From NCBI GenBank assembly GCA_951828235.1, contig OX639965.1:515191-579190 (forward strand): a stretch of DNA of 64,000 nucleotides, read 5' to 3'. Of this stretch, positions 2,905 to 39,805 are shown piece after piece; position 1 is the stretch's first letter, and the number at the start of each line of letters is the position of its first letter. This stretch comes from an uncultured Gammaproteobacteria bacterium (lineage in GTDB: Bacteria; Pseudomonadota; Gammaproteobacteria; Steroidobacterales; Foliamicaceae). A program made the position numbers and the translations under genes. The notes beneath the pieces were generated by a model. It did no database searches. It worked only from the letters and a program-made list of their open reading frames with translations, and was not told where the DNA came from.

Positions 2905-3872
2905 TGAGGTATGTGCGTGTCCTGCTGCCGGTACGGCTCTCTCGCGGTAAGGCCCAGAAGCTCGAGCAATCCCTCGTCGCTGTCGAACGAGGGGTTTGGC
3001 GTGGTAAGCAGTTTTTCGCCGGTGAATATCGAATTGGCGCCGGCCAGGAAACACAGGGCCTGCTGCTCGGGGCTCATACGCGAGCGCCCGGCGGACAAAC
3101 GCACCATGGCATTCGGCATGAGCACGCGCGCGGTGGCGATCATCCGGACCATTTCCCAGGTCGAGACCGGCGGGCAGTCCTCCAGGGGCGTTCCGGGCGC
3201 CGGGACCAGCGCGTTGACCGGAACCGACTCCGGAGGACTGGGCAGCGTTGCAAGGGTGTGCAGCAGGTCGATGCGCTGATTTACTGTTTCGCCCATCCCG
3301 ATAATGCCCCCGCAGCACACGGAAATGCCGGCCTTGTGTACGTTGGCAACCGTCTCCAGGCGGTCGTCATAGACGCGCGTGCCGATGATCTCGGGATAGA
3401 ACTCGCGGCTGGAATCGAGGTTGTGGTTATACGCATACAGGCCCGCTTCCTTGAGGCGCTGCGCCTGCGACTCGGTGAGCATGCCGAGGGTGCAGCAGAC
3501 TTCAAGCCCCAGGTCGCGGACGCCGGAAACCATCTCCAGCACCTCGTCGAAGTGGCGATTGTCGCGCACTTCGCGCCAGGCGGCGCCCATGCAGAACCGG
3601 GTGCTTCCCGCCGCCTTGGCTTCCCGCGCGGCTTCGAGCACCGCGTCAAGTTTCAGCAGGCCGTGCCGGTCGATGCCGGTGTGGTAACGGGCCGCCTGCG
3701 GGCAATAGGCGCAATCCTCGGGGCAGCCGCCGGTCTTGACCGACAGCAGCGTGCAGAGCTGTACTTCGCCCGGAGCGTGATGCTCACGGTGCACCGTGGC
3801 TGCCCTGTACACCAGGTCCAGCAGCGGCGAATGGTAGATCGCCGCGACGTCCGCCCTTGCCAAGTCCGACAT
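2901..3872 (-). CDS. bioB: Biotin synthase (radical SAM)
   Basis: KTGGCPEDCAYCPQ (CxxxCxxC), RFCMGAAW, YNHNLD, CCGGIIGMGE, SVPVN, VRLSAGR; GGAGG RBS. Confidence 0.97.
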   Translation of the reverse strand: MSDLARADVAAIYHSPLLDLVYRAATVHREHHAPGEVQLCTLLSVKTGGCPEDCAYCPQAARYHTGIDRHGLLKLDAVLEAAREAKAAGSTRFCMGAAWREVRDNRHFDEVLEMVSGVRDLGLEVCCTLGMLTESQAQRLKEAGLYAYNHNLDSSREFYPEIIGTRVYDDRLETVANVHKAGISVCCGGIIGMGETVNQRIDLLHTLATLPSPPESVPVNALVPAPGTPLEDCPPVSTWEMVRMIATARVLMPNAMVRLSAGRSRMSPEQQALCFLAGANSIFTGEKLLTTPNPSFDSDEGLLELLGLTAREPYRQQDTHIPQ

Positions 3873-3881
3873 GTTCGCCTC

Positions 3882-5450
3882 CTAGTGCCGTATCACAGGT
3901 GTATCCCGCCGCCCGAGGACGGATGGCGCCAGCAGTTCATCGTACCGGCCTCGTCCAATCATCGCGCCGGGACTGCGGTCTGCAAGCGATACTACAACGA
4001 TTACCAGGGCCGCGGCCGGAATCGAGAACAGCCCCGGATAAATCCACGGGAAGGGCGCGTTCTCAAGCCCCAGGGCACCTTCCCAGACGGCCGGACTCAG
4101 CGCCAGCAACACCACCGAAACGACCATGCCCACCCAGCCGCCGATGATCAGCCCGCGTGCGCTGGCGCCGCGCCAGAACAGCGCAGCAACCAGCGCCGGC
4201 GTGTTCACGCTGGCGGCCACGGTAAAGGCGAGCGCGGTCAGATAGGCGACGTTCTGTCCCCGAAACTGAATCCCCAGCGCCACGGCCACCACGCCCAGTC
4301 CCACGACGCTGATGCGCGACGCCCGGACTTCCGTCCTGTCGTCGGCACGGCCACGCTTGAGCACGCCAGTATAGAGATCGTGCGCCAGGGCCGCAGCGGC
4401 GGCCAGCACCAATCCGCAAACCACCGCCAGCAGCGTGGCGAAGGCCACCGAAGCCATGAATCCCAGAAGCAGGTTGCCGCCGATGATCCGCGCCGCATGC
4501 ATGATCGCCATATTGGTACTGCCGATCATTCCGCCCTGCTCGTTCAGGATCTCCGTATTCCCGGCCAGCAGTACGATGATTCCGAGCCCGGTAATCCAGA
4601 GCAGCAGCGAAAAAGTCACGATGTAGCCGGTGGCGTACACCGCGGAGCGGCGGGCCTGTCTGGCGTCGGGCACCGTAAAGAAGCGCATCAACAGATGCGG
4701 CAGCCCCACCATGCCGACCAGCCCGGTCAGGACAAACGCGAAGATCGAGATCCTGTCGGGCAGGAACTGACCCGGGCTCAGCCACTCCTCGCCCCGCTGA
4801 TGCACGCGCGCCGCCGACTCCAGCAACGATAACGGACCCTCGCCCAGGTTCAGCATGAGCAGGGCAAGCAGCACCAGGATCGACATCATGAGCAATACGG
4901 CCTTGGTCATCTGCACCCAGGTGGTCGCCAGCATTCCGCCGACGCTTACATAGAGCACGGTCAGGCCACCCACCATGGCGACGGCATAGGGATAGCGGAT
5001 TCCGAACAGCACCTCGAACAGCGCGCCGCCCGCCACCATCTGCGATATCAGGTACAGGACCGCGGCCACCAGCGTCCCGGTGGCCGCCAGCACGCGGATC
5101 GAGGTTTCGCGAAAGCGTGCCGACAACACGTCCACAAAGGTATAGCTGCCCAGGTTCCGCAGCCGTTCCGCGAGCAGGCACATCAGCAGCGGGTAGCCGA
5201 CTGCCCCGCCCGTCATGTATATGAGGCCATCGTATCCGTCCGTGTAGATGACGGCGGTCACGCCCAGCAGCGTTCCGGCGGAAAGATGGTCCCCCGCGAT
5301 CGCCAGCCCGTTGCTGAAGCCGCCGATCGAGTGCGAAGCCGCATAGAACTCCGAAGATGAACGCGTCCGCCGACCCGCCTGCCAGGTGATCAACAGCGAG
5401 GCCCCGAGGATCAGGACAAACGTGAGGATGGAAGCCAGGTTAGGCGCCAT
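3882..5450 (-). CDS. Sodium:solute symporter, ActP-like
   Basis: NGLAIAGD, GGMLATTWVQ, GLPHLLMRFFTVPDARQARRS, AFATLLAVVCGL; many TM segments; preceded by DUF485. Confidence 0.88.
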   Translation of the reverse strand: MAPNLASILTFVLILGASLLITWQAGRRTRSSSEFYAASHSIGGFSNGLAIAGDHLSAGTLLGVTAVIYTDGYDGLIYMTGGAVGYPLLMCLLAERLRNLGSYTFVDVLSARFRETSIRVLAATGTLVAAVLYLISQMVAGGALFEVLFGIRYPYAVAMVGGLTVLYVSVGGMLATTWVQMTKAVLLMMSILVLLALLMLNLGEGPLSLLESAARVHQRGEEWLSPGQFLPDRISIFAFVLTGLVGMVGLPHLLMRFFTVPDARQARRSAVYATGYIVTFSLLLWITGLGIIVLLAGNTEILNEQGGMIGSTNMAIMHAARIIGGNLLLGFMASVAFATLLAVVCGLVLAAAAALAHDLYTGVLKRGRADDRTEVRASRISVVGLGVVAVALGIQFRGQNVAYLTALAFTVAASVNTPALVAALFWRGASARGLIIGGWVGMVVSVVLLALSPAVWEGALGLENAPFPWIYPGLFSIPAAALVIVVVSLADRSPGAMIGRGRYDELLAPSVLGRRDTPVIRH

Positions 5451-33569: not shown

Positions 33570-33884
33570 TTACTCTTCGGGAGCGATGGTGAGGGTAAGC
33601 CCGTCCAGTTCTTCGGTAAATCTGAGCTGGCAGGTCAGCCGCGAGTTCTCCCTGAAGTAATCCAGTTCGGACAGCAACTCTTCCTCCTCGGGAGACCTGG
33701 GCGGCAACTTGTCCCACCAGGAGGGATCGACATAGCTGTGGCAGGTGGCGCAGGAGCACATGCCGCCGCACAGCGCTTCGACGCCGTTGTCCAGTTCACG
33801 CAAGGTCTCCATTACGCTCACGCCGGTGTGGCCTTCGACAACCTGAGACTCGCCCAACCGGTCCGTTACGTGAATCCGCGCCAT
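33570..33884 (-). CDS. 2Fe-2S ferredoxin (adrenodoxin/putidaredoxin type)
   Basis: CGGMCSCATCH...SRLTCQ. Confidence 0.93.
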   Translation of the reverse strand: MARIHVTDRLGESQVVEGHTGVSVMETLRELDNGVEALCGGMCSCATCHSYVDPSWWDKLPPRSPEEEELLSELDYFRENSRLTCQLRFTEELDGLTLTIAPEE

Positions 33885-33907
33885 TGACGATCTCGCAGGC
33901 CGCCTGC

Positions 33908-34249
33908 TCAGGCCGTGCCGGCGTTACGGTCCAGGGGCGTATGGAAGTACTCGCTTTCCTCGCAATGCTGCTTGACTTCCTCCATCAGGCGAGCGAGGCG
34001 CTGCTCGGCGGTCGCAACGGAGGCGCAGGTCTCGCACAGCGGATCGTTGCAGGGCTGGCGCGAAAACAGCCAGAAATGGACTGCGCCGGCCAGCAGTCCC
34101 GAAGCGACGTCCCAGGCGTCCGGTTCATCGTTGGATTCCAGCAGCTTGTTGCCGCCGTTGATCACGGCGTCTATCGCTTCCTGGAAACCTTCGGGATACT
34201 CTTCTTCGCCGGCGAAATAGTCGTCCGGCAGCAAATTATCGGTACTCAT
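33908..34249 (-). CDS. Acidic hypothetical protein with a CxxxxCxxC motif
   Basis: Coherent 113-aa ORF filling the gap upstream of the ferredoxin; QPCNDPLCETC. Confidence 0.7.
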   Translation of the reverse strand: MSTDNLLPDDYFAGEEEYPEGFQEAIDAVINGGNKLLESNDEPDAWDVASGLLAGAVHFWLFSRQPCNDPLCETCASVATAEQRLARLMEEVKQHCEESEYFHTPLDRNAGTA

Positions 34250-34326
34250 GCGCTTACCCGTAAATTCGCTTACGCGGCCCTTATATGGTACCACCTACGC
34301 CGCTCCCGCTAAAGGGCCGATCGCCC

Positions 34327-35640
34327 TCAGGACGCGGTCTGCGGAATCCCGTACTCGCGCAGCGTGCCCTCCAGCGTGGGGCGCCCCAGCCGTATCCGGC
34401 TGTCGTTCAGCAGGTACGAGAACACGTAGCCGGCCGCCAGCATTATTACGCCGATCAGGAAACAGTAAAGGACCGCCCGGTCCGGGTAGACGTCCTTCAG
34501 GTAACCCACGTAGACCGGGCCGGCGATGCCGGCCGCAGCCCAGGCGGTCAGGATGCTGCCGTATATCGCCGACATCTTCCTGGGACCGAATACGTCAAGC
34601 ACGAACGAAGGCATGGTGGCGAATCCGCCGCCGAAGCAAAGCAGCACGTAGCACACCAGCGCCGAGAACACCCAGGGGTTGGTCTCGGTCATAAGGATGC
34701 CGAACACGACCATCTGGCTGGCCAGCAGGATCCGGAACACCGCGACGCGTCCGATTCGGTCCGACAGCAAACCCCAAAAGAGGCGTCCCACGCCGTTGCA
34801 CAGGGAACTTACGGCTATAAGCGTTGCGCCATACTCCGCAAGAACGGCCGGCTCAAGGGAGGAATCGGAAAGTCCCCAGACTTCCTGCAGCAGTTCCGAC
34901 TGAAAGCTGATCACGGAAATTCCCGCGGCGATATTGAAAAAGAACACGATCCAGAGAACCACGAAGGACCGCGACCTCAGGTACGGCAACAACGAGTCCG
35001 GATCGGCGCCGGGGCTGACAGGCTGTGGCGTTGGAGCGGCCGGCGCCTGTTCGGGTTCGGGCGGATTGCTCAGGAACAGACTGCAGGGAATCAGCACGCA
35101 GGCGAAAATCACTCCCAGCCAGACGAAGACCAGCGACAGGTCCTGGCCGGCCTGCAGCACCAGCAGCGGCGCCAGCCCCTTGCTGAGCAGAAAGGCGCCC
35201 ACCCCGAATCCCATGACCACGATCCCGGTAACCAGGCCCTTGTGGTCGGGAAACCACTTGGCCACGGTAGCCACGGGAGTGACGTAACCCATGCCGATGC
35301 CCGCTCCCCCGACGACGCCGTAAAACAGGTAAAAGAGCGGGATCGAATCCAGGTGCAGCGCCCATCCTGCAAGCAGGTAGCCGACGGAGAACAGGGAGGA
35401 ACCGATCAGCGCGAGCCGCCGGGGGCCATGCCTGGGCAGCGCCTGGCCGGCCCAGGCCGCCGAAACCCCGAGCGAGAAGATCGTGATGCTGAAGGCCCAG
35501 GCCGTCTGCGTAAAGGTCCAGCCGGATTGTCTCACCAGAATCGTCTGGAAAAAACTCCAGGCGTACACCGTGCCCAGGCACACCTGCAGCGTCGTGCAGA
35601 AGAGCGCGATGACGGTGCGCGGCAGGCGTATGGTTCTCAT
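34327..35640 (-). CDS. OFA (oxalate/formate antiporter) family MFS transporter
   Basis: GTVYAWS, GYVTPVATVAKWFPDHKGLVTG, SDRIGR, FGGGFATMP. Confidence 0.9.
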   Translation of the reverse strand: MRTIRLPRTVIALFCTTLQVCLGTVYAWSFFQTILVRQSGWTFTQTAWAFSITIFSLGVSAAWAGQALPRHGPRRLALIGSSLFSVGYLLAGWALHLDSIPLFYLFYGVVGGAGIGMGYVTPVATVAKWFPDHKGLVTGIVVMGFGVGAFLLSKGLAPLLVLQAGQDLSLVFVWLGVIFACVLIPCSLFLSNPPEPEQAPAAPTPQPVSPGADPDSLLPYLRSRSFVVLWIVFFFNIAAGISVISFQSELLQEVWGLSDSSLEPAVLAEYGATLIAVSSLCNGVGRLFWGLLSDRIGRVAVFRILLASQMVVFGILMTETNPWVFSALVCYVLLCFGGGFATMPSFVLDVFGPRKMSAIYGSILTAWAAAGIAGPVYVGYLKDVYPDRAVLYCFLIGVIMLAAGYVFSYLLNDSRIRLGRPTLEGTLREYGIPQTAS

Positions 35641-35654
35641 TGACAGTGCCCTGA

Positions 35655-36392
35655 CTAGCCCTGCTGCACGGCCTTCAGCGTTTCGGGCCTGGGACCGTTT
35701 CGGGCCACGTACAGGAACAGGCGCGCCAGGTGGCCCACTTCGTCATCCCGGGCAAGCACGGCCCGTTCCGACACCGATTCCTCGTCCTCGTCCCGGGCCA
35801 GTTCGACCGCATAGGCAAGCAGTTCGCCAAGCGGCTTGGCCGCGAGGTTCACCAGCCAGATCGAAGCCAGCACGCCGATGACCAGGATGATGGAAACCAG
35901 GTAGACCTGCTGGCCTATCGCCCTCGTGATCTTCAGCGAGACCACGTCCAGGTCCATGCCGACGTGCACGGTTCCGGCCACTCCCGCGAGAATCGGGCTG
36001 CCGACCTCGACAAAATTGCCCAGACCCGGGAGTTCCCGGTCGATGGGCTCGGTACTGCGGTGATCGCTTTGCAGGATTTCGTCGGGAATACCCGGCACGA
36101 AGGTATGCGCGAGGTACTCCCCGGTCTCGCTGGTGATATAGATGTAGCGGATGCCCTGAATCTCGACGAACTGGTCCACCAGCGACTGCAGCGTGGCCAG
36201 GTCGCGGTTCAGCAGGATGTCCACGCTGGAGTCCGCCACGGTCTTGGCGATGTTCTTGCTGTTGATCTCGTACTCCGCCGATAACTGCGTATCCACCGTA
36301 TACAGGCAAAGGGCCGAGGTGGAAAGCACGATTCCGCCGAATACGGCGAATATGCCGAAGCGCGTTCGCTGAAAAAGTTTCTGAATCTTCAT
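35655..36392 (-). CDS. Two-TM periplasmic-sensor (Cache-like) plus HAMP protein with no output domain
   Basis: TM1, periplasmic domain, TM2, then KPLGEL...RDDEVGHLARLF (HAMP) and a stop about 15 aa later. Confidence 0.8.
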   Translation of the reverse strand: MKIQKLFQRTRFGIFAVFGGIVLSTSALCLYTVDTQLSAEYEINSKNIAKTVADSSVDILLNRDLATLQSLVDQFVEIQGIRYIYITSETGEYLAHTFVPGIPDEILQSDHRSTEPIDRELPGLGNFVEVGSPILAGVAGTVHVGMDLDVVSLKITRAIGQQVYLVSIILVIGVLASIWLVNLAAKPLGELLAYAVELARDEDEESVSERAVLARDDEVGHLARLFLYVARNGPRPETLKAVQQG

Positions 36393-36393
36393 A

Positions 36394-37698
36394 TCATCCA
36401 AACTTGGCTTGCCAGTCCTCCAGGGGAACGAAACGGCCATCCTCAACGACCGTGTAGTAAACAGTCTGCAATCCCTGGCGCCGGTCCGGCCCGAACGAAA
36501 CCCGCTCGCCGACGCCCAGATCGAAATCCCGCACCGAGAAGACCGCTTCTTCCAGCCTGGCGCGATCCACCTGGCCCTCAAGCCGGCGAATTATTTCCGC
36601 CAGGAGCTTGGCGTTGAGGAACCCTTCCAGGCTGCCGAAACTGTTGGGGAAGGGCGCATACTCCTCCTTGACCAGTTTGGGCGGAACCTGCGGATCGTAG
36701 TGAGCCATCAGTTCGCGGTATTCGCGCACGGCCGGCAGCGACAGGTCCTCGTAACTGGGCACGACCTGCGAGTTGACCAGCAGCCGGGTGTAGGCCTCGC
36801 CGTCCTCGCGCCCCTCGACCAGCAGCTTGAGCATGTTTTCGCTGCCCACGAAGGACAGGTTGGCGATCGGCACCTCGAGTCCGAGATCGACAGCGTCGCG
36901 CGCAAAGGCGGCGCAGGCCGCGTAGGCCCCGATGCAGATGACCGCGTCCGGCGCGGACGCCTTGAGGATTTCGACCTGGCGGCGCATGGTGCCGGTGAAC
37001 GGCGCGCCGCGGCTGTAGGTGGCCTCTCCGGCGATCCGCAGTCCGTGCGGCCTGAGAGCCGCCCTCACTCCAGCCCAGCCGCTACGGCCGTAGGCGTCGG
37101 CCTGGTAGAAAACGGCAATGCGCTCCTTGCCGATGCGCACGAAGTTGTTCACCAGGCCAGCGGTCTCCTGCGCGTAGGAAGCCCTCAGGTTGAAGGCGAA
37201 ATCACCGTACGGCGGCTGCCTCTGCGGCTGCGCGCCGGTGAACGGGAAGAACATGAAGATGTTCTCGTCCTGAAATTTCTTGAGCAGCGGCAGCACGCGG
37301 GTGACGGTGGGCGTGCCCACGTAACCGAACAAGAGGAAAACCTGGTCCTCCAGCATCAGCTTCATGGTGTTTTCCACGCAGGGGTCAGGCTGGTAGCCGT
37401 CGTCGTACATCTTCAGCGCGATCCTGCGGCCGTTGATGCCACCGGATTCGTTCACCCGGCTGAAAAAGGCGCTTGCTCCCCGGTACAGTTCGGTTCCCAG
37501 TCCCCGCGAAGGCCCGGAAAACGCCGCTGACACGCCCAGCACGATCTCGCCGTCGAAGGAGGCGCCGTCCAGGTTCGATTCAGCCGCGCCGGAGTCCGCC
37601 TGCCGGAAATAGCTTTCCGCTCCGCCCAGCGCCCGCTCCAGCGGCGCCAGCACAATGGCCGCAAGTGCGTACCGGATAAGGTCCTTTCTCGTCAGCAT
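36394..37698 (-). CDS. Periplasmic binding protein (LivK/type I fold)
   Basis: LGVSAAFSG, GGINGRRI, DDGYQP, GYVGTPT, NLRASY, DAYGRSG; Tat-like leader TRKDLI. Confidence 0.9.
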   Translation of the reverse strand: MLTRKDLIRYALAAIVLAPLERALGGAESYFRQADSGAAESNLDGASFDGEIVLGVSAAFSGPSRGLGTELYRGASAFFSRVNESGGINGRRIALKMYDDGYQPDPCVENTMKLMLEDQVFLLFGYVGTPTVTRVLPLLKKFQDENIFMFFPFTGAQPQRQPPYGDFAFNLRASYAQETAGLVNNFVRIGKERIAVFYQADAYGRSGWAGVRAALRPHGLRIAGEATYSRGAPFTGTMRRQVEILKASAPDAVICIGAYAACAAFARDAVDLGLEVPIANLSFVGSENMLKLLVEGREDGEAYTRLLVNSQVVPSYEDLSLPAVREYRELMAHYDPQVPPKLVKEEYAPFPNSFGSLEGFLNAKLLAEIIRRLEGQVDRARLEEAVFSVRDFDLGVGERVSFGPDRRQGLQTVYYTVVEDGRFVPLEDWQAKFG

Positions 37699-37764
37699 GA
37701 CCGGGCGGGGCGTTGGATCGTGGGTCAACGCTAGCGGAAGACTACCGGTTTCCCGATGCGGCCA

Positions 37765-38280: not shown

Positions 38281-39762
38281 TTACGCGGCCCTCGGATAAA
38301 TCTCCGACAACAGCCGGCTGCTGCCGTCCGGCTGAACGATGCGGCAATGCTCGCGGCGCAGCAGGCGCGGATCGACGACTCCGCAGGAATGCGCGATGAT
38401 CTTCAGCTCTTCCTCAATGCGGCGCTGGTAATTGGCCACGCTCACCGCCTTGGTCGGCGGATCGAGGCCGCGCTGCAGGCGCCGGTTGTGGGTGGTGATG
38501 CCCGTGGGGCAGGTGTTCTTGTTGCAGCGCATCGCCTGAATGCAGCCCAGCGCGAACATGAAACCCCTCGCGGACACCGCAAAGTCCGCCCCGGCGCACA
38601 GCGCCCAGGCCGCTTCGGTCGGGGTGATGAGCTTGCCGCTGGCCACCACCCGCACGCGTTCGCGAAGACCGTGGTTTTCCAGGGCGTCCACCAGCATGAT
38701 CAGGCTCTCCCTCAGCACCATGCCCACATTGTCCATGAGCGGCATCGGGGCCGCGCCCGTGCCGCCGTCGCCGGAATCCACGGTGACGAAGTCGGGTGCG
38801 CTGTCCGGCCCGCGACGGTTGATCAGTTCGAAAAGTTCATCCAGCCAATGCGGGTTGCCGATCACAGCCTTGTATCCGGTGGGCTTGCCGCCGACGTCAC
38901 GCACGCGGTTGATCAGGTCCAGCAACTCCCCGTTGTTGCTCACCTCCCTGTGGCGGTTCGGGCTTACCGCGTCCTCGCCCGGGCGGATGCCCCGAATGCC
39001 GGCGATCTCCTCGGTCACCTTCGCTCCCGGCAGGATCCCGCCCTTGCCCGGCTTGGCTCCCTGGCTCAGCTTGATCTCGATCATCTTCACCTGCGGGTTA
39101 GAGCCCACCTCCCTCAGGCGCTCCTCGCTCAGGGCGCCTTCGGGCGTGCGCACGCCGTTCTTGGCCGTTCCGAACTGGAACACCACGTCGTTGCCCGATT
39201 CGAGATGCCAGGGCGAAAGTCCGCCCTCGCCCGTGTTCATCCAGCATCCGGCCATCGCGGCGCCCTTTCCCAGCGCCGTCACCGCGGGCTTTGAAATGGC
39301 CCCGAAGCTCATTCCGGAAATATGGAAGATCCGGTTGGTGGTGTACGGATTCGGGCCGTCCTTGCCGATCGTCACTTCGGACGTGTCCCGGTATTCCTCC
39401 TCAAGCAGGCTGAAGGGCGCGTTGGCGAAGATGGCTGTGCCCGGCCAGCGCGTCTCGCGGGTCGAACCGAAGGCCACGGTCATGGAGCCGGCGCTGGAGG
39501 CCCGGTCCACCCAGTTGCGCTGGGCCCGATTGAACGGCATTTCCTCGCGGTCCATGGCGAACATGTACTGCCGCATGAACTCGCCCAGGCCCTCGAAGAC
39601 ACGGCGGAAGCGGCCGATGACCGGGTAGTTGCGGCGAACGGCGTTGGCGGTCTGCGCGAGGTCCACCATCAGCAGGAAAAGCAGGACCAGCAGCGTGGTC
39701 CCGACCGCCAGAAGGAACAGGCTGGCCAGGATGTGCAAGGCTTGATCAACAAAGTCCGTCAT
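38281..39762 (-). CDS. FMN-binding glutamate synthase family protein (stand-alone, N-terminal TM)
   Basis: SGMSFG, NTGEGG, KLSQGAKPGKGG, GCIQAMRCNKNTCPTGITT. Confidence 0.9.
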   Translation of the reverse strand: MTDFVDQALHILASLFLLAVGTTLLVLLFLLMVDLAQTANAVRRNYPVIGRFRRVFEGLGEFMRQYMFAMDREEMPFNRAQRNWVDRASSAGSMTVAFGSTRETRWPGTAIFANAPFSLLEEEYRDTSEVTIGKDGPNPYTTNRIFHISGMSFGAISKPAVTALGKGAAMAGCWMNTGEGGLSPWHLESGNDVVFQFGTAKNGVRTPEGALSEERLREVGSNPQVKMIEIKLSQGAKPGKGGILPGAKVTEEIAGIRGIRPGEDAVSPNRHREVSNNGELLDLINRVRDVGGKPTGYKAVIGNPHWLDELFELINRRGPDSAPDFVTVDSGDGGTGAAPMPLMDNVGMVLRESLIMLVDALENHGLRERVRVVASGKLITPTEAAWALCAGADFAVSARGFMFALGCIQAMRCNKNTCPTGITTHNRRLQRGLDPPTKAVSVANYQRRIEEELKIIAHSCGVVDPRLLRREHCRIVQPDGSSRLLSEIYPRAA

Positions 39763-39805
39763 GCTCAACCCCCGGCTGATGATGCATTGCTTGCGGACGG
39801 CTGCC

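Follow-up and report, generated by a model that had tools for sequence, protein, structure and literature searches.

A substrate-binding protein, an output-less Cache-HAMP receptor and an MFS carrier encoded together: a candidate envelope module for a small carboxylate

What may be the role of a periplasmic binding protein whose gene is followed not by the genes of an ATP-binding cassette (ABC) importer, but by those of a receptor that lacks any output domain and of a carrier of the major facilitator superfamily (MFS)? This question is raised by three consecutive genes in a stretch of 64,000 nucleotides (nt) from an uncultured gammaproteobacterium (assembly GCA_951828235.1, contig OX639965.1, positions 515,191 to 579,190), referred to below as the window and numbered from its first letter. 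The genes encode a substrate-binding protein (SBP), a small protein with two transmembrane (TM) helices, here called the stub, and a 12-TM carrier. The most economical interpretation is that they constitute one self-contained envelope module for a small carboxylate. In it the SBP would dock on the stub, and the stub would control or feed the carrier, a reading to which we assign a probability of roughly 0.55. The architecture itself is real, widespread, under selection and undescribed as far as we have found, literature searches having returned no published description of a system that combines an SBP, an MFS carrier and a Cache/HAMP protein.

The three genes and their products

Genes were called in the window (G+C content about 65%) by open reading frame (ORF) calling guided by the G+C content of third codon positions (GC3). 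The features of the first two genes and the extent of the third are as follows:

36394-37698, minus strand: SBP gene, 434 aa, Peripla_BP_6; an alternative TTG start lies at 37728
37624-37698, minus strand: Tat-like export signal of the SBP, LTRKDLIRYALAAIVLAPL
35655-36392, minus strand: middle gene, encoding the output-less receptor stub, 245 aa, with TM1, sCache_3_2, TM2, a HAMP-like segment and a 13-residue tail
36294-36359, minus strand: TM1 of the stub, hydrophobic segment at residues ~12-33
35913-36293, minus strand: periplasmic single-Cache (PDC) domain, residues 34-160, from Pfam, AlphaFold2 (AF2) and Foldseek
35841-35912, minus strand: TM2 of the stub, residues 161-184, within the long helix 148-200 of the AF2 model
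35697-35840, minus strand: HAMP-like segment with helix AS1 (185-202), a connector and helix AS2 (215-232), carrying P187-L188 and D217-E218-x-G220
34327-35640, minus strand: MFS carrier gene, 437 aa, 12-TM, OFA/SLC16-like group

The initial annotation of this locus, made from the sequence alone, had described the three genes as tightly packed with gaps of 1 and 14 nt, and both the ORF coordinates and the junction sequences agree with this: the SBP gene and the middle gene meet at tggaTGAtATG (a 1-nt gap), and the middle gene and the MFS gene are joined by TAG, 14 nt and ATG. With a spacer of only 14 nt, a frameshifted kinase ahead of the MFS gene is excluded, as had also been claimed. All terminator-like matches obtained in a promoter/terminator scan were located within coding sequence.

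The SBP matches Peripla_BP_6 in Pfam (PF13458, 141 bits, residues 52-421) and, with a two-lobe PBP1 domain and a Tat-like export signal, is a type-I periplasmic binding protein; its closest solved relative is 4kv7 (E 8e-46). Orthologues in other phyla carry LTRRSLLRRGLAGLLA, in which a twin-arginine (Tat) motif is followed by a hydrophobic stretch, and since the SBP of the window has RK and not RR in its signal, the latter is merely Tat-like there.

For the middle protein, a sensor with the order TM, periplasmic domain, TM and HAMP, ending just past the HAMP, had been proposed. The order and the early stop are both confirmed, the hydrophobic segments lying at residues ~12-33 and ~161-184 and the stop codon 13 residues past AS2, and the periplasmic domain, previously left unspecified, can now be named. 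The protein matches sCache_3_2 (PF17203) with 44.7 bits against a Pfam cut-off of 28.4, and its AF2 model consists of an N-terminal TM helix, a PDC/Cache fold and a long helix that passes through TM2 into AS1, followed by AS2. Foldseek matches of this model include WalK, CitA, DcuS and the LapD-type periplasmic domain, and the fold is therefore a single Cache of the CitA/DcuS/WalK kind; comparison with PDB sequences gave no meaningful match. No HisKA/DHp, HATPase_c or MCPsignal domain was found in the middle protein with Pfam. The HAMP itself falls below Pfam significance and is seen by alignment with homologues: in long receptors this domain is Pfam-positive, and residues 185-232 of the stub can be aligned with it, P187-L188 and D217-E218 being common to both; weak matches to NCBIfam kinase families cover residues 138-225. 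In stubs and long receptors alike, the periplasmic residues Q69, Q74, Y83, H96-T97-F98, P103 and H143-V144-G145 are invariant, as is D217 of AS2, with P187-L188 and E218 nearly so.

Conservation and spread of the trio

A scan of one genome per species gave 280 loci, 80 of which were kept for comparison by tblastn. The order and strand of SBP, stub and MFS genes were the same in every one of these, and all three genes, with their tight spacing, were present in each of the 76 loci not cut by a contig end (76/76, 71-98% identity). Trios with 4-nt overlaps were also found at greater distance, around P0127 (46% identical; L082-L084) and P0161 (37%; L085), and P0139 probably carries the same trio with the same overlaps. 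The conservation on which the initial annotation had staked its proposal is thus found both in all informative loci and in distant clades at 37-46% identity.

The loci bear the labels Gammaproteobacteria, Acidobacteriota (two groups), Latescibacterota, Gemmatimonadota, Aminicenantes and Opitutales, which amount to at least five phyla, and when flanking genes were clustered, the SBP, stub and MFS genes proved to be the only ones common to all lineages, in at least eight distinct contexts. Labels from so many phyla together with contexts so unrelated argue that the trio is a mobile cassette, and mis-binning cannot explain this spread, because many of the loci sit on multi-megabase chromosomes. 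The flanks are unrelated housekeeping genes specific to a lineage or context type (a glutamate-synthase-like FMN protein, TPR, ACAD, UbiA, biotin carboxylase, ADH, aminotransferase, DXS and cytochrome b among them); they give no consistent pathway that could serve as a clue to the substrate, and in the flanks examined no kinase, STAS or PP2C gene was conserved beside the trio.

In a tree built from the concatenated trio, this group is shallow, with about 0.5 substitutions per site, the P0127-type outgroup lying 3.1 away. Copies from gammaproteobacteria fall into a single clade whose sister comprises those of Thermoanaerobaculia, and the labels Latescibacterota, Gemmatimonadota, Opitutales and Aminicenantes interleave. 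Since the GC3 of the trio matches that of the flanks in each host, and the cross-phylum proportion of synonymous differences (pS) is 0.52-0.69, below saturation, the transfers are not recent and yet are far younger than the phyla concerned. Among 400 genomes sampled evenly from the class, the stub was found only in the window's own genome, and it was not found in three genomes of the same order; the weak gammaproteobacterial matches L091-L096 are distant long sensors, with no SBP in these short loci.

Some near-identical trios (branch lengths 0.003-0.016) with common flanks occur under different phylum labels, namely L047/L050, L052/L055 and L072/L074, which points to mis-binning or to inconsistent submitter taxonomy, the pair L047/L050 probably being a binning error. 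Because some metagenome-assembled genomes (MAGs) are affected in this way, the phylum count should rest on closed chromosomes. MAG labels (SB06xx, COS/CAR/RHO, Plut) suggest that the hosts live as symbionts of sponges and corals; literature searches for the Candidatus names and MAG labels gave nothing relevant to the habitat.

Certain lineages have further genes beside the trio. In loci labelled Latescibacterota or Gemmatimonadota (L048, L055, L079 and related ones; ~3400-4600, plus strand), the gene directly upstream of that of the SBP encodes a protein of ~370 aa that has a signal peptide and ends in ...HFTYNF; without a Pfam match, it is a candidate beta-barrel of the outer membrane. In the same contexts, genes for a Tsx-like channel and an NCS2 permease are located downstream. 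In the Opitutales loci the trio is followed by a TonB-dependent receptor. In the window the trio is part of a minus-strand run that comprises a Glu_synthase-like gene, a TPR gene, the SBP, middle and MFS genes, two small ORFs, an acyl-CoA dehydrogenase gene and that of LeuRS; the nearest neighbours are:

38281-39768, minus strand: glutamate-synthase-like FMN protein, 495 aa
37765-38277, minus strand: TPR protein, 170 aa
33908-34294, minus strand: small ORF, 128 aa, no Pfam match
33570-33884, minus strand: small ORF, 104 aa, no Pfam match

The first of these has only the FMN 'Glu_synthase' region and is separated by 3 nt from the TPR gene, and the two are kept alongside the trio only in the gammaproteobacterial lineage. 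The small ORFs directly downstream of the MFS gene are syntenic and 80-96% conserved in that same lineage only, and the interval 33570-34294 is therefore placed outside the mobile trio.

Receptor coupling, the carrier and competing explanations

That the SBP and the stub may work together is suggested by the relatives of the latter. An exhaustive HMMER search of 1.8 billion representatives gave 1335 of these, and the ones at 33-44% identity are mostly proteins of 500-1200 aa that begin with the same N-terminal module and continue with PAS/GAF-HisKA-HATPase(-REC-Hpt), MCPsignal, SpoIIE or STAS. Seven long relatives were inspected for an upstream SBP gene. In five of them a Peripla_BP_6 gene overlaps the start of the receptor gene by 4 nt, these receptors being a methyl-accepting chemotaxis protein (MCP; P0142, which carries an MCPsignal domain), a histidine kinase (P0148), a hybrid histidine kinase (P0151), a SpoIIE protein (P0163) and a STAS protein (P0221). 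P0144, with a truncated upstream gene and the same overlap, is a probable further case beside the six informative ones, and P0147 has no upstream SBP gene. The SBP linked to the MCP is 61% identical to that of the window, the SBP of the P0127-type trio being less so (56%). As the same SBP gene overlaps receptors with kinase, MCP, phosphatase and STAS outputs, its coupling to the Cache domain is ancestral. Judged from these sequences, the SBP and Cache-HAMP receptor make up a sensory module of two genes that is old and whose outputs can be exchanged. The trio lineage lacks an output in cis, and it is the MFS gene that sits at the position of the next partner.

The stubs themselves form a family. 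In a protein collection clustered at 90%, 826 homologues were obtained, of which the 120 best matches listed are nearly all 235-261 aa long, at 73-100% identity, and a second clade around P0127 (238 aa, 46% identical to the stub of the window) holds a further 394; in both clades the homologues are nearly full length, at 238-251 aa. When a tree was built from the common module, the MFS-linked stubs (238-256 aa; neighbours verified or probable) were one clade (SH-aLRT 100) among 72 long receptors, with a kinase as sister, and three other short proteins, which are dispersed among the long receptors, probably represent fragments or separate fission events. When the window is compared with loci of other lineages, the pairwise ratio of nonsynonymous to synonymous divergence (dN/dS) of the stub is 0.06-0.17, with SBP and MFS in an equal range and at similar dN. 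Within clades, the AS1 and AS2 helices are 74-80% identical, which is near the 82-84% of the Cache domain, the values for the connector and the C-terminal tail being 37% and 31% in the sponge-type clade and 59% and 32% in the second. Between clades, conservation is highest in TM1 (56% identity). Because the HAMP helices have been retained under purifying selection, transmembrane signalling is probably still in use, and the same retention favours gating over a pure scaffold role. One member of the MFS-linked clade, P0132 (380 aa), has in place of the short tail a proline-rich, low-complexity C-terminal extension of ~130 aa with NPPS/PPGFSP repeats.

The carrier matches MFS_1 in Pfam and, in NCBIfam, the SfMCT equivalog 'L-lactate MFS transporter' (NF049980, 327.7 bits against a cut-off of 320). 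Its score for the OFA subfamily lies below the cut-off, the OxlT equivalog TIGR04259 gives 149.5 bits where 335 are needed, and its best solved relative is SfMCT (PDB 6g9x, E 1e-34), followed by OxlT. The earlier designation as an OFA MFS carrier is to be refined: within the OFA/SLC16-like group, the protein is closer to the monocarboxylate symporter SfMCT than to the oxalate:formate antiporter. The substrate-site residues of SfMCT, among which N276 and R280 are the carboxylate-binding pair, were taken from the literature (PMC6573034) and placed by phmmer alignment to 6g9x. The pair has its equal in the carrier:

34783-34797, minus strand: TM8 motif N282-x3-R286 of the carrier, corresponding to N276/R280 of SfMCT

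Y119, N276, R280 and F335 of SfMCT are kept as Y119, N282, R286 and F340, all four being invariant in 12 trio carriers, the pocket is changed by L28V, L145F and Y331F, and the second basic residue of OxlT, K355, is absent and aligns to W/A. The substrate is most likely a monocarboxylate, perhaps one more hydrophobic than lactate.

From these elements the following mechanism may be proposed. The exported type-I SBP would capture its ligand in the periplasm and, once loaded, dock on the single-Cache domain of a dimeric two-TM stub, as with the kinase and MCP relatives. Having no enzymatic output, the stub would act through its TM helices and HAMP-like bundle on the co-encoded SfMCT-like carrier: it might activate the carrier in response to loaded SBP (allosteric gating), it might hold the SBP over the outward-open carrier for ligand hand-over, or it might do both. 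The net effect would be that a proton-coupled rocker-switch carrier takes up the ligand with high affinity and in dependence on the SBP. Conserved across phyla, the cytoplasmic C-terminal tail of the trio carriers, NDxRIRLGRPTLExTL, could, speculatively, be a contact for the HAMP. The initial proposal that the two-TM protein relays the SBP ligand, or a signal, to the MFS carrier is therefore backed by comparative genomics (the conserved trio, the SBP-Cache pairing and the lack of an ABC partner), the mechanism itself being inferred. That the module is the first SBP-dependent transporter built on a rocker-switch MFS, with a third subunit drawn from a signalling receptor, in which a Cache-HAMP dimer reads SBP occupancy and gates or loads the carrier, is a bolder claim that we put forward only tentatively.

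Several points weigh against the module as proposed. Contact among SBP, stub and carrier is inferred only, and so are the ligand, the direction of transport and the choice between gating and hand-over. The bundle is divergent: since the Pfam HAMP model is not significant in the middle protein or in the MFS-linked clade, the segment is called HAMP-like and no more. The pLDDT of the AF2 stub monomer is only moderate (68.5). The invariant polar residues H96, H143, Q69 and Q74 of the Cache domain could, judging from their conservation, bind a small ligand directly, in which case the SBP would be less central. No true gene fusion of trio members, of the kind that the initial annotation had suggested looking for, was found, and the two candidates, P0238 (sCache + MFS, 638 aa) and P0131, were rejected as frameshifted read-throughs with junk linkers. 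To our knowledge, there is no documented way in which a rocker-switch MFS carrier accepts a ligand from an SBP. The known SBP-dependent secondary carriers are all described as elevator-type (10.1101/2024.11.27.625746), which is shown for TRAP and, for TTT and GltS, deduced by modelling or from structural similarity.

An alternative that has to be taken seriously, though we consider it unlikely, is that the locus serves signalling only, the SBP and stub forming a sensor that signals in trans to a cytoplasmic partner whose gene lies elsewhere (a kinase, STAS or PP2C-type protein), with the MFS carrier merely co-expressed or acting as a co-sensor in the manner of DctA with DcuS or UhpC with UhpB. 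Signalling proteins have input modules to which the stub is homologous from end to end, there are Cache-HAMP receptors that lack an output and have their partners in trans (bioRxiv 10.64898/2026.05.25.727664), and one stub outside the MFS-linked clade adjoins a free-standing STAS gene. This last stub (P0143, 253 aa; JGI 3300043331) lies in the order STAS, SBP, stub and a cut gene, a context which hints that for other stubs the output may be supplied in trans, by a free-standing STAS or a split SpoIIE. However, the MFS-linked stubs make up a single clade and are followed by the MFS gene without exception, just three genes travel together across phyla and through at least eight contexts, no kinase, STAS or PP2C gene accompanies them, and the host partner needed would have to pre-exist in every recipient; signalling in trans is hard to reconcile with a three-gene cassette that occurs in five phyla.

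It is also conceivable, if improbable, that the flow is outward, the carrier exporting or exchanging a monocarboxylate and the SBP and stub gauging its outside level in order to throttle the carrier. A sensor placed on a carrier fits this direction equally well, and carriers of the OFA/SLC16 type are bidirectional, some of them being antiporters (cf. the OxlT match). Against it, high-affinity SBPs are typically tied to scavenging, the putative outer-membrane barrel or TonB-dependent receptor beside the trio in some phyla suggests import, and the nearest carrier to have been characterised takes up its substrate by proton symport.

The idea of the middle gene as a sensor kinase that has decayed or been truncated, and whose adjacency to the SBP and MFS genes is meaningless, can draw on the relatives at 35-44% identity, which are mostly kinases and chemoreceptors of 500-1200 aa, but is rendered extremely improbable by the 826 and 394 near-full-length homologues in two clades, the dN/dS of 0.06-0.17, the monophyly of the stubs and the invariant order of the trio; output domains are not universal among the homologues, and the gene is not the truncation that the initial annotation had named as a refutation of its proposal.

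Equally hard to credit is that the SBP serves an ABC importer encoded elsewhere, with the stub and MFS genes as unrelated neighbours. Peripla_BP_6 proteins classically feed LivHMGF-type systems and the genome holds at least 40 ABC ATPase matches. In the 64-kb window, however, there is no match to the ABC ATPase (PF00005), the nearest being ~44 kb from the trio, and the closed, single-contig genome of 3.11 Mb (estimated completeness 94.7%) has no match to BPD_transp_2 (PF02653), the LivH/M-type permease, a control search for which was positive in 12 of 14 reference genomes. The SBP stop and the stub start are, moreover, 1 nt apart, and overlap by 4 nt in distant clades. The earlier observation that neither an ABC permease nor an ATPase lies near the SBP therefore holds, for the permease, across the whole genome, and the SBP belongs to the receptor, without a possible Liv-type ABC partner in its host.

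The other two canonical Peripla_BP_6 SBPs of this genome likewise overlap non-ABC membrane partners. One of 403 aa (L097, G000:C1:695279-697924) overlaps by 4 nt a multi-TM protein of 162 aa without a Pfam match, after which comes a ZIP-family carrier (289 aa), and this may be another unit of SBP, small membrane protein and secondary carrier. The other (L098, G000:C1:2738710-2742086; 398 aa, 35% identical to the SBP of the window) overlaps, also by 4 nt, a kinase of 727 aa with a TorS-type sensor domain, HAMP, HisKA and HATPase; on the other side of this SBP gene lie genes for an anti-sigma-like ATPase and a REC-PP2C protein.

Comparison with known systems and implications

Tested for membership, the trio falls outside the LIV-type ABC, TRAP, TTT, histidine kinase and MCP systems. 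Its nearest functional likeness, by analogy, would be an SBP-dependent receptor of the LuxPQ/TorTS type with the carrier as output. In LuxP-LuxQ, TorT-TorS and ChvE-VirA, a two-TM receptor passes a signal through the membrane once a binding protein has docked on its periplasmic domain; LuxP belongs to the type-I SBPs, and the periplasmic domains of LuxQ are PAS/Cache-like. The trio receptor differs from these in having no kinase, MCP or other output and an MFS gene downstream. Af1503 of Archaeoglobus fulgidus is likewise a two-TM receptor, with HAMP as its only cytoplasmic domain.

Transporters that form a functional complex with a membrane sensor are represented by DctA-DcuS, UhpC-UhpB and BceAB-BceS, and DcuS shares the single-Cache periplasmic fold of the stub. 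In these systems information flows from transporter to kinase to gene expression, whereas in the trio, as no kinase is present, any such flow must end at the carrier.

With TRAP, TTT and TAXI-GltS the trio has in common a co-encoded SBP, small membrane protein and 12-TM secondary carrier and the absence of an ATPase. The components are different: the SBP is Peripla_BP_6 and not DctP, TAXI or TctC, the place of the DctQ of TRAP or the TctB of TTT is taken by a Cache-HAMP receptor stub, and the carrier is a rocker-switch MFS where theirs are described as elevator-type; no Pfam match to the TRAP (DctP/TAXI, DctQ, DctM) or TTT (TctC, TctB, TctA) families was found in the trio. The analogy with TRAP/TTT small subunits drawn by the initial annotation is consequently given up, the stub being unrelated to DctQ/TctB, in favour of the SBP-dependent receptor with a transporter as its output. 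From SfMCT, the L-lactate/H+ symporter of Syntrophobacter fumaroxidans (PDB 6g9x/6hcl), which is the best solved relative of the carrier and whose equivalog cut-off the carrier exceeds, the trio carriers differ in three pocket residues and in their conserved C-terminal tail, and SfMCT works alone.

The closest precedent for an output-less Cache-HAMP protein acting on an operon partner is the Cache_heme-HAMP (CHH) receptor, which acts via a Ser/Thr kinase of its operon that binds the HAMP (bioRxiv 10.64898/2026.05.25.727664). Like the stub, it has a periplasmic Cache, two TM helices, a cytoplasmic HAMP and no intrinsic output; unlike the trio, it has a Cache of the heme c, NO-binding subtype, lacks an SBP and is partnered by a soluble kinase, where the trio has a membrane carrier.

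According to the preprint on TAXI-GltS, no secondary transporters other than TRAP and TTT had until then been known to employ a soluble SBP; it asks whether SBP coupling needs an elevator mechanism, a question that, as it says, new classes would test (10.1101/2024.11.27.625746). An SBP-coupled MFS, if true, would be such a test and would overturn the elevator requirement for SBP coupling. It would also make a transporter, rather than an enzyme, the output of a HAMP signal converter, and would extend what was found with CHH, the action of a Cache-HAMP receptor without output on a partner from its operon. Annotation pipelines are likely to hide the unit under the names 'ABC transporter substrate-binding protein' for the SBP, 'L-lactate MFS transporter' for the carrier and 'hypothetical protein' or 'sensor histidine kinase regulating citrate/malate metabolism' for the stub. 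The cassette is abundant, with 826 homologues in one stub clade and 394 in a second, and has moved between at least five phyla; it is probably a means of obtaining a carboxylate, derived from host or community, that is important in the apparent sponge or coral habitat.

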